The notes below the pieces were generated by a model. That model saw nothing but the letters and a program-made list of their open reading frames with translations. It ran no database searches and was not told where the DNA came from. A program made the translations under genes and the position numbers. Below, piece after piece: positions 7,381 to 62,764 of a stretch of DNA of 64,000 nucleotides; position 1 is the first letter of the stretch, and every line of letters begins with the position of its first letter. The DNA lies in the NCBI GenBank assembly GCA_964016885.1, contig OZ024746.1, positions 37,882,001 to 37,946,000 on the forward strand. The letters are read 5' to 3'. Source of the stretch: Eledone cirrhosa. Lineage: Eukaryota.

Positions 7381-8146
7381 AACTATATATATGTGTTTGT
7401 GGCTATATTGTATCTGTATTATTTTTTACCTTTGGTCAGTCAATGGCCACATTGAGGAACGAATAAATGAGTTTACCGATATAAAAGACACATAAGCGAC
7501 AAGCGAAAACCAACCAAACAGTGAGTGTGTTCTGTTATTAATTCTGGCAATATTACACACATATTACCCTCCCCAAGTATAAATAATATATATATATATA
7601 TTCATGTATATTCATATATACTCATATGTATATATATTCATATATATATATATATATATATATATATATATATATATATATATATATATATATATATATA
7701 TATATATGTGTGTAAATGAAGTAATTCCATCGGAAAAGTCCAGGAAAAAAGAGTGCTCTATGTAGGCAACAGAGCTTAATTATTATTATTATGTAATAAA
7801 CAACATAAGGCAATTATTCCATTTACCAGTGGTTTCTTAAAAGCAAAAGGTTTTGCTTTCAATCCTCAGAACGAAAAAATCCTGGTTTGTTTATTGAATT
7901 TGGATTACAAAAACAAAAATGCAATCTATATGAAAGTGAGGCTGGAGAAGGGAGAAGGAAAGGAAAAATAAAATAAAATAAAACTACACATGCAAACACA
8001 CACACAAAAAACCCAAAAGCATACTTACACACACATACATATATACATATATATATGTACGCATACATATATACATATACACATAAGAGGACATTATCTT
8101 TCATGCTAGAAAAACTTTACTTTTTACTAATGATATTTGGCTTAAA

Positions 8147-9375
8147 ATGTCAAACCCTGAAAGCTCTTTTGATGTTGCAATGGGTTCATATGACAGTGCG
8201 GACGTGTGTGACTTAGTAGGATTATTCCTTCTTCACACACTCAAAGAGAAATTTCCGTCCCATAATATCGGTTTATACCGTGATGACGGATTAGCGGTTT
8301 CTCATACCACCAACGGCCATAATCTTGATAAATTCCGTAAAGATTTAATCAATACTTTTGCTAATCTTAACCTTAAAATTACTATAGATACGAACCTTAC
8401 TAATGCTAACTTTCTTGATATTAATATTGATCTACTTACTGCCTCTTTTAAACCCTATCATAAACCTAATGAAAATCTTAGGTATATACACAAAGAGTCT
8501 TGCCATCCCCCTATAGTTTTTAATAATCTTATTCCTAACATTAGCCGTAGGATTTCTACCTTATCTTCGTCTATAGACATTTTTAATAAAGCCGCCCCTT
8601 ATTATAATAAAGCCCTTAAGAACAGCGGTTTTACAGAAAAAATTCTTATTTACCTACTCCCCCCCCCCCTAAAACTAACCATAATAACAGGAAAAGGAAG
8701 ATTATTTGGTTCACACCCCCCTTCTCTCTAACTGTCAAAACTAATGTAGGAAGAAAATTCCTTGAACTATTAGACAAACATTTTCCTCCTATTCATAGAT
8801 ATTATAAGATTTTTAATAGGAATGTAGTTAAGATCAGCTACTCTTGTTGCCCATCTATGAAGTCCAAAATCACCAGTTCAAACCGTACGAGGATAAATCC
8901 AGGATGCAGTTGCAGGAAGCCGGATGAATGCCCATTGCAGGGTAAATGTAACACAAAATCTGTCGTTTATGAGGCTAAGATAACGCCAGTTATCAACAAC
9001 CAGCCAGCCAGGAGTGAGCGATATGTCGGTATGACCCAGGACAGGTTTAAAACCAGATTTTACTCACATGTCGCTTCTTTTAAGCACTCCGATAAACGAA
9101 CATCAACGGCCCTCGCAAGTAAGGTATGGGATCTCAAGGATAGTAATATCCCGTACTCTATTGATTGGTCTATATTAGACCATTCGAGGGAGTACCAAAG
9201 GGGCACAAAGAATTGTTCTTTGTGCACCACAGAAAAGTATAGGATTTTGCTAAACTTGAGAGCCACTTCCGCTTGACTTAACTCAAAGACTGAAATCTTC
9301 AGATGCTGTCTTCATCTGAAATCGCATCTGATCTGTAACTGGATTGACACTCCTATGATAAATCAACCGCCTTGA
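8147..9375 (+). pseudogene. PLE RT C-terminal half plus GIY-YIG endonuclease (frameshifted)
   Basis: DVAMGSYDSADVCDLVG, GLYRDDGL, FLDI, KRKIIWFTPPFS...SYSC, CSCRKPDEC (CxCx5C), VVYEA...YVGMT..RFKTR, CSLCTTEK. The frame continues past the TGA at 9274 as LNSKTEIFRCCLH to 9375. Confidence 0.85.
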
Positions 9376-9910
9376 ACTCCTTCCCTGCTCTTTACTTCTG
9401 CTACGGTTTTTATTTTGCTGATTCTACCTTCTGTACTTCTGTATATTTACAAAATTTTTATCTCCCTTACCTCCTTTTATATTTTACCTCCTCTTAGCCC
9501 ACCCCCATATATTTTTCTTGTTTTGCCCTTCACATACCTATGTGTATGTGTATGTATTTTTGTGTGTATATATATATGTATATATATATATATATGTATA
9601 TATGTATGTATATATATGTATGTATATATATATATATATATGTATGTGTGTGTATGTGTGTGTGTGGTTGTGTGTGTGTGTGTGTGTGTGTGTGTGTATT
9701 TGTATTTGGTTGTGCGTGTTTTTTATATATACGTATTTGCATGTGTATAATTGTTTAGCTATGTATGTATATGTGTGTTTACGTATATGTGTGTGTGTGT
9801 GTGTGTGCGTTTATATTTTTATATTTTTGTATATATATGTATATATATATATATGTATATATATATATATATATATATATATATATATATATATATATAT
9901 ATATATATAT

Positions 9911-11636
9911 TGGAATAAATGCTCTGAAATAGCGATATATATGTGAAGATAGACATAGAATATTCGAAAATATTCTGTATGTTTATAATAAACATTTTGA
10001 AGACCTAATCGCTATAGAATAGAATACGTCACGTATTACAATTAGATTCTCGATAAAAGCAAGGGAAGTAACCTACGCGTTTCATTCTTATTAGAAATTT
10101 TCAGGATTACATATCCAGTGCTTTTATCGAGAATGACACAGCTAGATACGTGATGTATTCTATTCTATAGCGATTTGGTCTTCAAAATGTTTATTATAAA
10201 CATACAGAATATTTTCGAATATTCTATGTCTATTGTAATACGTGACGTATTCTATTCTATAGCGATTAGGTCTTCAAAATGTTTATTATAAACATACAGA
10301 ATATTTTCGAATATTCTATGTCTATCTTCACATATATATCGCTATTTCAGAGCATTTATTCCAATTTCTAATTTCTGCTGGACCGGCAACCGCTCTTTCA
10401 AACCAGTTCCTGTACACAGCTAAGTATTCTATAAGTCTCTAGCTGTGTCATTCTCGATAAAAGCACTGGATATGTAATCCTGAAGATTTCTAATAAGAAT
10501 GAAACGCGTAGGTTACTTCCCTTGCTTTTATCGAGAATCTAATTGTAATACGTGACGTATTCTATTCTATAGCGATTAGGTCTTCAAAATGTTTATTATA
10601 AACATACAGAATATTTTCGAATATTCTATGTCTATCTTCACATATATATCGGTATTTCAGAGCATTTATTCCAATATATATATATATATATATATATATA
10701 TATACATATATATATATATACATATATATACAAAAATATAAAAATATAAATGCACACACACACACACATATACGTAAACACACATATACATACATAGCTA
10801 AACAATTATACACATGCAAATACGTATATATAAAAAACACGCACAACCAAATACAAATACACACACACACACACACACACACACACACACACACACACAC
10901 ACAACCACACACACACATACATAAAAAAATAATAAATACATTCTATAGCGATTAGGTCTTCAAAATGTTTATTATAAACATGCAGAATATTTTCGAATAT
11001 TCTATGTCTATCTTCACATATATATCGCTATTTCAGAGCATTTATTCCAATTTCTAATTTCTGCCGGACCGGCAACCGCTCTTTCAAACCAGTTCCTGTA
11101 CACAGCTATGTATTCTATAAGTCTCTAGCTGTGTCATTCTCGATAAAAGCACTGGATATGTAATCCTGAAGATTTCTAATAAGAATGAAACGCGTAGGTT
11201 ACTTCCCTTGCTTTTATCGAGAATCTAATTGTAATACGTGACGTATTCTATTCTATAGCGATTAGGTCTTCAAAATGTTTATTATAAACATACAGAATAT
11301 TTTCGAATATTCTATGTCTATCTTCACATATATATCGCTATTTCAGAGCATTTATTCCAATTTCTAATTTCTGCCGGACCGGCAACCGCTCTTTCAAACC
11401 AGTTCCTGTACACAGCTAAGTATTCTATAAGTCTCTAGCTGTGTCATTCTCGATAAAAGCACTGGATATGTAATCCTGAAGATTTCTAATAAGAATGAAA
11501 CGCGTAGGTTACTTCCCTTGCTTTTATCGAGAATCTAATTGTAATACGTGACGTATTCTATTCTATAGCGATTAGGTCTTCAAAATATTTATTATAAACA
11601 TACAGAATATTTTCGAATATTCTATGTCTATCTTCA
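9911..11636. repeat. 310-bp unit retrozyme-like array (one inverted partial copy, then + strand copies)
   Basis: Units recur at 10941, 11251 and 11561, with a further copy at about 10234-10674 and an inverted partial copy at 9911-10145. Flanked by (TA)n. Confidence 0.9.
10474..10516 (+). ncRNA. Minimal type I hammerhead (copies at 11160-11202 and 11470-11512; minus-strand copy at 10068-10110 has G8>A)
   Basis: GTAATC-CTGAAGA-t-TTCT(aata)AGAA-t-GAA-ACGCGT-A-GGTTAC, enclosed by a 16-bp outer stem ATTCTCGATAAAAGCA/TGCTTTTATCGAGAAT. Confidence 0.85.
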
Positions 11637-62206: not shown

Positions 62207-62541
62207 ATGAAATCGAAAATGCAACTGGAGTCTTATTTAAAAAAATATATATATATTTATTTGGTTCCTTTACCGGTTTCGCAGTTCTTCTGCTTTTCAA
62301 AAGTAGAGTTGAGATGGAGGGTCTGTGGTTATTTTTACATCTGGTTGGTCTCTGAATGTTACTTCTTTTATATGGAAAAAAGTAAGTAACATTCAGAGAC
62401 CAACCAGATGTGAGAAAAACCACAGACCCTCCATCTCAACTCTACTTTTGAAAAGCAGAAGTACTGCGACACCGGTAAAGGAACCAAATTAATATATATA
62501 TTTAAAAAAAAATAAAACTGCAGTTGCATTTTCGATTTCAT
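62207..62541. repeat. Fold-back element, about 158-bp arms, 19-nt spacer
   Basis: 62207-62364 is inverse to 62384-62541. Confidence 0.9.
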
Positions 62542-62611
62542 ATATATATATATATATATATATATATATATATATATATATATATATATATATATATATA
62601 TATATATATAT

Positions 62612-62764
62612 AAATGAAGTAATTCCGTCGGAACAGTCCAGGAAAAAAGAGTGCTCTATGTAGGTATCAGAGCTTAATAGTTATGTAATAAACAGCATAA
62701 GGCAATTATTCCATTTACCAGTGGTAAATGGAATAATTGCCTTATGTTGTTTATTACATAACTA
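62612..62764. mobile_element. Solo fold-back of the PLE family 2 terminus in (TA)n
   Basis: 62612-62724 matches 7714-7833. 62678-62764 is a hairpin with a 1-nt loop at 62721. Confidence 0.85.

Follow-up and report, generated by a model that had tools for sequence, protein, structure and literature searches.

What kind of event leaves inverted pairs of repeats between runs of (TA)n in the genome of Eledone cirrhosa? The question is raised by a window of 64,000 nucleotides (contig OZ024746.1, positions 37,882,001 to 37,946,000), the whole stretch of DNA analysed here, in which 12 tight inverted matches were found compared with 0 in each of 10 shuffles. The first-pass annotation had described ten pairs with their 3' ends pointing outward to (TA)n, and polarity is outward in 10/10 of them. 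Together with five further insertions in the window, these are confirmed as head-to-head 3' ends of Penelope-like elements (PLEs) or hammerhead (HHR) retrozymes, and (TA)n lies outside the pair in all 15. Arm polarity was read from HHR motifs or from RT/GIY-YIG ORFs, the latter either inside the window or in related copies elsewhere in the genome. The HHR motifs that set it lie at 7869-7824 (-), 12513 (+), 10480/11166/11476 (+) and 60045 (+), with seven on the minus and eight on the plus strand of 22446-30008; at 58484-58997, polarity comes solely from HHR core words and the truncation profile. The expectation that the outward orientation holds genome-wide is also supported, and the inverted pLTR geometry is an established one for PLEs, with head-to-head named as the commonest arrangement (PMC3846280).

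Each family has two fixed 3' ends, a short one (S) and a long one (L), lying 31-163 nt apart. Although the pairs are real, several coordinates originally assigned to them missed a one-sided tail at the outer end; those that follow include it. The family A insertion (Hydra-like PLE by motif) at 7708-12601 has an L arm at 7708-8085 (-) with the HHR at 7869-7824, and an S arm at 8087-12601 (+) containing an RT/GIY-YIG remnant (8087-9276), a microsatellite-rich UTR and an HHR (12513-12558). Nested inside it is a three-arm insertion of family J, a 310-nt HHR retrozyme, at 9909-11637, which comprises an L arm (9909-10146, -), plus-strand pieces to 10675, an inverted copy of the left flank to 10941 and an S arm (10940-11637, +). 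Family B, which resembles a Neptune-like PLE 3' UTR, occupies 14497-15118, with an L arm at 14497-14817 (-), an S arm at 14817-15118 (+) and a 37-nt tail on the left only. Family K, apparently a Neptune-like PLE, forms a second three-arm insertion at 19974-20939: an S arm to 20146 (-), an S arm at 20145-20758 (+), (TA)n, a 33-nt inverted flank copy (20832-20864) and a tail piece that runs out to the L end (20872-20939). Two pairs previously taken for full insertions, 9911/10674 and 19981/20756, are inner same-end pairs within these two three-arm insertions, both of which include an inverted copy of flanking DNA; the outer ends lie at 11637 and 20939. Inverted flank copies across (TA)n were observed at 19922/20832, 9616/10941 and 58959-59063, and at locus L316.

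A family C PLE at 20958-21333 consists of an L arm (20958-21191, -) and an S arm (21190-21333, +), with a 38-nt tail. Arrays of family I, a 505-nt HHR retrozyme, fill 22445-30009; the L arm (22445-25921, -, phase 346) and S arm (25944-30009, +, phase 287) are 99.9% alike and flank a templated-looking insert at 25922-25943. Three insertions are additions to the original list. Two belong to family K: a minimal one at 43926-43972, read against the K reference, in which an L arm of ~17 nt (-) and an S arm of ~29 nt (+) neither overlap nor form a hairpin, and another at 44833-44985 with a non-overlapping L arm (+25..+59) and S arm (-105..+2). The third, of family H, lies at 57885-58085 and has an S arm (-), an L arm (+) and a tail of ~77 nt; its polarity is assigned by truncation profile alone, and neither an HHR nor an ORF was found when looked for in this family. 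The supposed outer pair at 58115/60680 resolves into two separate insertions, each outward-ended, of family G, a Hydra-like PLE to judge from its motifs. In the first (58117-58438), the L arm (58117-58282, -) ends at S and meets the S arm (58283-58438, +) end-to-end, as in L1 twin priming; the second (60259-60679) has an S arm (60259-60415, -), an L arm to 60679 (+) and a 163-nt tail. An assignment of the latter's arms to two subfamilies was dropped, both being simply old, at 85-90% to their best other copies. Between the two stand family E at 58455-58998, an old insertion with arms ~89% alike (L arm 58455-58777, -; S arm 58776-58998, +; 31-nt tail), and family F, Hydra-like PLE by motif, at 59983-60176 (S arm to 60042, -; L arm 60042-60176, +, with HHR 60045-60074; 65-nt tail). 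Next come family D, which looks like a Neptune-like PLE 3' UTR, at 62129-62541 (L arm, -; S arm, +; 64-nt tail) and a family A mini-insertion at 62612-62766 (L arm, -; S arm, +), joined at self-complementary HHR stem III.

The PLE or retrozyme origin proposed for these pairs is supported. Five families run upstream into RT/GIY-YIG ORFs, with variable 5' ends. Family D gives a GIY-YIG match over the Pfam cut-off (1.6e-6) and family B an RVT_1 match under it (3e-6), with Atlas neighbours that carry PF26215/GIY-YIG. For families C, F, G, K and A, the RT/GIY-YIG assignment is by visible motifs only; a Pfam search of the window's own PLE remnants and a PDB search returned no match. Graded 5' truncation, fixed 3' ends and a one-sided tail, which characterize EN+ PLEs, were all found. 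On the motifs described in PMC8557442, families B, C, D and K look Neptune-like and A, F and G Hydra-like. A type I HHR motif is present in the terminal regions of A, F and K, a long-stem core in G and only core words in E, and none was found in the terminal regions of B, C, D and H; these motifs are predicted, and stems I and II appear just partly in MFE folds. An Rfam scan gave miRNA matches under the gathering score, judged to be hairpin or microsatellite noise, and only weak HH9 matches (38-1043). In a check for a conserved hairpin downstream of S or L, MFE z-scores by a simple method in 12 windows came near -2 for family A alone.

Families J and I are non-coding tandem units of 310 nt and 505 nt with one minimal type I HHR motif each, like the animal non-LTR retrozymes of a recent preprint (bioRxiv 10.64898/2026.07.22.740005), whose available text does not deal with the geometry of inverted insertions or with target sites. 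Since both carry the full PLE footprint of S+L ends, head-to-head arms and (TA)n, the data support their mobilisation by PLE proteins. In family J, 5' stops at the predicted HHR cut site number 3/58 against 1.3 expected, which is not convincing.

Across the genome, the two arms of an insertion almost never share the same 3' end. One S and one L arm are joined in 32/32 young two-arm insertions of family J (among 40 loci), in 118/125 classifiable joins of the eight families A-G and K, and in 4/5 pairs of family I. There was one true L/L join, and two joins scored S/S proved to be S/L on visual inspection. The same held for 10/10 same-family pairs, one of them ending inside the tail, from an unselected sample of 60 stretches of 10 kb on chromosomes C1-C4 only. 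Which side carries which end is free (70 L/S and 48 S/L). Matches were taken from the best 40 candidates per query at loci of up to 1.5 kb; long pairs are therefore under-represented, and the frequencies of two-arm insertions do not stand for rates across the genome. Two of the loci, L062 and L063, look like a single event counted twice. The pairing rule formed no part of the first-pass annotation, while the one-sided tail and the layout are already in print (PMC3846280, PMC8557442).

We consider it probable that these head-to-head S+L pairs in (TA)n are 5'-truncated PLEs and retrozymes that twin priming produced in one insertion event. The GIY-YIG endonuclease would cut both (TA)n strands, one 3'-OH starting reverse transcription at L and the other at S, 31-163 nt upstream and usually on the same source RNA. 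The RNP would be the main determinant of the start sites, with only a few nucleotides of TA pairing. The L-primed cDNA could halt near S and leave end-to-end arms or, more often, pass S and leave overlapping arms, that is, a hairpin; the two cDNA ends would then be joined through short microhomology, as blunt ends or with templated inserts between them. On this view, the S-to-L interval would be the known one-sided tail, and rare three-arm insertions would gain a copy of the flank made from a DNA template. Both ends may be served by one RNA molecule or by two.

The arms themselves fit such a history. Both come from a common source in most pairs: partner arms have subfamily alleles in common in 27/27 informative J pairs (manual count), and minor alleles match in 136/224 comparisons between partners versus 15% for non-partners. 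Truncation is independent. Among 104 pairs of non-tandem families, the S arm extends beyond its partner on the 5' side in 28 and the L arm in 32, with overhangs of equal size (medians 88 and 90 nt, respectively; up to 1164 nt), and arm lengths in family J show no correlation (rho 0.05, n=32). A cDNA started at S leaves no tail to be copied. No arm overlap, and hence no hairpin, is seen in six insertions (43926, 44833, 58117, L327, L365, L246). The earlier proposal that the cDNAs join by microhomology stands in part. At 23 young family J junctions, short microhomology is in excess (mean 1.96 vs 0.76 nt), but the mode is not universal, with 5/32 young junctions blunt and 9/32 containing inserts or several pieces. 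Exact junctions of families A-K show gaps in 34/47, partly an effect of using one reference copy per family, and the conclusion on microhomology is drawn only from family J. Among 32 J pairs, flank duplications were found once in direct (L308) and once in inverted (L316) orientation, TSDs being otherwise masked by (TA)n.

Some observations count against twin priming. The 5' ends of the two arms lie within 10 nt of each other in 44/104 pairs, compared with 21.7 expected by permutation, although BLAST ends over-run at palindromes. In four J loci (L217, L224, L301, L321), the two arms have single-unit variants in common that line up when counted from the junction, and the shorter arm nests within the longer one. 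L arms stopping near S (-30..+25) number just 6/104, not clearly above chance. Two or three cross-family fusions, at L305 (K+J), L163 (F and a relative of the PLE at 3183-7585) and perhaps L030, are not predicted by a one-RNA model, though later deletion could explain them.

Close 5' ends and nested variants are what single priming followed by fold-back would give. In this alternative, which we regard as less likely but still a serious contender, cDNA or antisense RNA (the proposal of PMC3846280) self-primes at a palindrome, and one arm is then cut back to S, by the endonuclease or in the course of microhomology joining, which leaves the tail on one side ('EN-mediated resolution', PMC8557442); later asymmetric tip deletions blur the nesting. 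It yields S+L pairs by construction, gives the arms a common source and places junctions at self-complementary spots, as with the 44/104 close ends and HHR stem III at 62730. The three-arm insertions of the window show that DNA-templated copying happens. However, fold-back needs large one-sided deletions to make S-longer pairs as frequent and as large as L-longer ones, and deletions again for the six non-overlapping insertions. The junction phases of young J insertions are spread around the unit, in addition to the lack of correlation in arm length, and at L303 and L321 the recurrent variant 188G of one arm is missing at the matching place of the other.

Twin priming retains one part of the original proposal, that both cut ends prime. 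Its other part, that the ends are equivalent through self-complementary (TA)n, each priming independently on the RNA 3' end before the cDNAs join by microhomology, is largely refuted by the pairing rule and now highly improbable. It accounts for outward geometry, S or L on either side, the microhomology excess, cross-family fusions and the TA-enrichment of S sites (>=3 nt in 7/8 families vs 16% background). Yet it predicts about half S/S or L/L pairs, and at most 4/157 were seen (1/157 after inspection, p ~2e-45). TA-like homology at start sites is only 1-9 nt, and a long internal (TA)n of the RNA is seldom the start: in family I, it is an end in only 2 of the listed arms, as against the fixed 287/346 sites. 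In addition, because tailed inverted pLTRs are also found in rotifer PLEs with ordinary 8-10-bp TSDs (PMC3846280), the geometry can do without (TA)n. The self-complementarity of (TA)n does not appear to set the start sites.

It is very doubtful that the hairpins formed later than the insertion, when replication switched template or a break was repaired at (TA)n beside a single-arm copy, or that they are long-read assembly fold-backs. The inverted flank copies noted above would suit such events, but these place (TA)n centrally and copy the same end, whereas the observed (TA)n is outside and the ends differ; arm divergence of 0 to 17% argues against assembly duplicates. A reading of the short hairpins as MITEs of a DNA transposon that targets TA, as their terminal inverted repeats adjoining TA and the modal sizes in families C (near -191), D (near -142) and F (near -70) might suggest, has a negligible chance of being right and, as originally argued, is refuted for families A-K by asymmetric ends (both flush in just 1/39 TA-flush hairpins of unselected DNA, a one-sided 25-450-nt extension in 31/39) that recur as single arms with graded 5' truncation running into RT/GIY-YIG ORFs, while the 37/55 unpolarised tight pairs of the sample may hold a few true MITEs.

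Of the models considered, twin priming from two fixed start sites on the RNA fits best, and it is consistent with in vitro data (PMC11167929). The anole PLE protein, a predicted dimer, cuts and extends both strands and initiates synthesis at two neighbouring positions inside the RNA, between which the tail lies. This Poseidon PLE of Anolis, PAc, also shares an AT-rich target and does not need HHR cleavage. For PAc, however, no strand preference of start site is reported, nor any tie of the two sites to inverted pairs, while here two sites are paired across ends; since start sites did not differ between strands, that study alone does not show the pairing rule. The rule predicts that, on a doubly cut target in vitro, the two strands use different start sites within one product. 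L1 twin or dual priming (PMC2837659; bioRxiv 10.1101/2024.08.27.596794) is alike in that both nicks prime, sense 3' ends point outward, deletions or duplications occur at the inversion point and microhomology is short. Its two-piece opposite geometry and shared source are present here. In L1, by contrast, the second site is a chance internal match, poly(A) is present and internal duplication is a minority outcome (17%), whereas here both sites are fixed, poly(A) is absent and overlaps of hundreds of nucleotides are usual.

Published EN+ PLEs (PMC3846280, PMC8557442) share the head-to-head arrangement of two 5'-truncated copies, one inverted next to the other, the tail at one end, the HHR in the terminal repeat and, in the Naiad and Hydra clades, a (TA)n bias. 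They are described as having a tail of 30-40 bp that is optional or 'often only at one end', in contrast to tails of 31-163 nt and a near-absolute S+L rule over ~160 insertions of 10 families here. Their inversion is ascribed in these sources to antisense self-priming or EN resolution rather than twin priming. A literature search for twin priming applied to PLEs found none, though the 2005-2008 Penelope papers and supplements, outside that search, may say so. How the tandem and inverted structures and the tail of PLEs are built is named an open problem in PMC8557442. The layout being published, the gain is quantitative and mechanistic rather than a new kind of element. We lean towards twin priming at two fixed sites as the normal integration of EN+ PLEs (Neptune-like, Hydra-like) and their retrozyme passengers, in which an asymmetric, probably dimeric RNP would assign one cut end to L and the other to S and so explain the inverted pLTR, the tail and some 10^5 MITE-like hairpins in this genome.

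At the young J locus L319, a run search and read comparison for an empty allele or TSD retrieved no record that crossed the unique flanks or matched them clearly; reads passed from minus to plus arm in 14/15 joints listed, with sides of 20-29 nt, and so were not counted as evidence. For annotation, a hairpin that abuts (TA)n on one side but stands 25-450 nt away from it on the other is the footprint of a PLE or retrozyme, not a MITE. The 39 TA-flush hairpins in 600 kb extrapolate to ~2x10^5 loci genome-wide, if chromosomes C1-C4 are typical.

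The inverted pairs are a real feature of the window (G000:C6:37882001-37946000; genome 3.0 Gb; GC 33.7%), where (TA)n is abundant, and their architecture is already known. Self-comparison of the window recovered every pair listed in the first-pass annotation and gave 12 tight inverted matches, compared with none in each of 10 shuffles. A motif scan detected 25 type I hammerhead (HHR) motifs, against 0-3 across 20 shuffles, and wherever a listed pair has such a motif it points away from the junction. The true outer ends of all 13 larger insertions pair a short (S) with a long (L) fixed 3' end. 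This explains the apparent misfit of an outer pair at 58115/60680, which comprises two insertions. The pairs proposed at 9911/10674 and 19981/20756 also exist, but they lie inside three-arm insertions, each of which contains flanking DNA copied in inverted orientation, and are not outer ends. A further (TA)n-flanked pair lies at 38400-39930 (463-nt arms, 90% identity; relatives in loci L113 and L378), with an HHR-like core in a one-sided extension and a SINE-like insert.

To identify the arms, the genome was searched with ten arm sequences (best 40 candidates per query, 300 loci), and 40 targeted and 60 evenly spaced stretches of 10 kb were retrieved. The arms belong to Penelope-like elements (PLEs) or HHR retrozymes. 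In eight families (A-G, K) the 3' ends are fixed at (TA)n, while 5' truncation varies by degrees from copy to copy. Same-strand RT and GIY-YIG frames lie upstream of the arms in B, C, D, F, and K, and likewise of family A in the window; G retains a C-terminal endonuclease remnant. Database backing is modest: D has a GIY-YIG match above the cut-off, B an RVT_1 match below it, and the Atlas neighbours of B bear PF26215 and GIY-YIG. By motifs described in PMC8557442, B, C, D, and K look Neptune-like and A, F, and G Hydra-like. J and I are tandem HHR retrozymes with units of 310 and 505 nt. Polarity is weaker for E, where only HHR core words were found, and for H, where neither HHR nor ORF was found. 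The G core at 58283-58380 has an unusually long stem II region (about 75 nt), and the G tail, the interval from S to L, appears to encode an ORF start (L184).

The S-to-L distance is characteristic of each family: 74 nt in A, 37 in B, 38 in C, 64 in D, 31 in E, 65 in F, 163 in G, 59 in K, about 35 in J, and 59 in I. Families A-G and K provided 153 minus-then-plus joins, of which 125 were classifiable (28 were unclassifiable or had one end off the locus), and 118 of these pair S with L. The seven exceptions are one L/L, two S/S (both with a shortened tail on inspection), three ending within the tail, and the three-arm K insertion of the window; L062 and L063 are probably one event counted twice. 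Among 40 J loci (32 two-armed, seven without a J partner, one three-armed in the window), all 32 two-armed insertions are S+L. The same holds for 10/10 insertions in the unselected sample, one ending inside the tail, and for 4/5 in family I, where the remaining pair has an end at the (TA)n inside the unit. Plus-then-minus groups are few, and each, judged by coordinates, touches a reference microsatellite or gap.

In most pairs, partner arms derive from a common source. The J subfamily allele is the same in both arms of all 27 informative pairs, rare variants are common to both arms in L313 and L323, and partners in A-G and K share 136/224 minor alleles versus 15% for non-partners, with no excess sharing in E. 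J arms are truncated independently, their lengths being uncorrelated (rho 0.05). Six insertions have non-overlapping arms, the smallest of 47 bp (43926-43972). Cross-family fusions, which complicate this picture, number two or three, two of which keep S+L; head-to-head examples join a K S arm to a J L arm (L305:3160-6599) and an F L arm to a relative of the PLE at 3183-7585 (L163:1501-3019).

Probably, both target strands are cut and S and L act as priming sites, one per end. Fold-back with trimming is a less likely source of these pairs, though it would also yield the four J loci in which variants are in register from the junction and the shorter arm is nested. Among 104 simple pairs, 44 have arms whose 5' reach differs by no more than 10 nt (21.7 expected); of the others, 28 have the longer S arm and 32 the longer L arm, with symmetric overhang sizes. 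Under fold-back, a cDNA started at L could give a longer S arm only after later deletion, and one started at S would contain no tail from which the L arm could be copied; L303 and L321 also carry a variant that fold-back would not yield. Taken as independent priming of equivalent ends, the earlier proposal is very unlikely, as concordant ends occur in 1/157 pairs (p about 2e-45 under independent ends). Nor are these MITEs, as that proposal had rightly held: in unselected DNA, 39 tight inverted pairs abut (TA)n directly, of which one does so on both sides and 31 have their second end 25-450 nt from the repeat, unlike the MITE prediction.

Double cutting with priming at S and L would leave two cDNAs to be joined. 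Microhomology, the suggested means, is in excess at 23 J junctions (mean 1.96 nt versus 0.76, p 1.4e-4), but five of these are blunt and nine further junctions contain inserts or several pieces. Short, repeated templated inserts occur at L212:1406-1466, L215:1388-1438, and window 25922-25943, which we take to resemble polymerase-theta joining or RT stuttering. The role given to (TA)n self-complementarity was not borne out as proposed. Alternating TA of at least 3 nt is present at S in 7/8 families (background 16%), L sites have 2 nt where measured, and long internal (TA)n rarely serves as an end, as in family I. Pairing may help start-site use, but (TA)n does not appear to choose the sites.

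Outward 3' ends extend beyond the window, as predicted. A 600-kb sample of unselected DNA contains 55 tight inverted pairs, and all 18 with assignable polarity (eight by HHR, 11 by family library, one common to both) face outward; in the sole HHR pair that points inward, (TA)n separates the two arms.

PMC8557442 restates the inverted-pair layout, ascribes the tail to endonuclease resolution, reports the (TA)n bias, and calls the mechanism open. PMC11167929 shows that each of the two strands is cut and then extended, and that a pair of neighbouring RT start sites delimits the tail. The concepts of twin and dual priming come from L1 (PMC2837659; 10.1101/2024.08.27.596794). A literature search spanning few subscription papers found none that joins PLE layout and tail, two start sites, and twin or dual priming.

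Several neighbouring elements were also recorded. A tandem 467-nt HHR retrozyme (1-1323; about 67-76% to family I) extends beyond the window start and terminates at (TA)n at 1321. A near full-length PLE (3183-7585, plus strand) has a long asparagine-rich ORF insert resembling those of rotifer Penelopes (PMC3846280). A related truncated PLE (12910-14219, minus strand) lies tail-to-tail with it, with nested A and J insertions between; neither has a visible inverted partner arm. At 59027-59959, an element with 303-nt direct repeats has at its 5' junction a 22-nt inverted copy of the adjoining E end across (TA)n, which is a fold-back of the flank. In runs from two other organisms, guessed to be DNA, the J unit (L319:4489-5251) forms a single high-depth 340-nt contig (310+30), i.e. 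a closed cycle, whether tandem array or circle. At 46630-49797 lies an RTE-like LINE whose frames encode an endonuclease and an RT (RVT_1 1e-33), and an RTE-like fragment (2486-3148) adjoins 364-nt direct repeats at 1480-1843/2176-2536.
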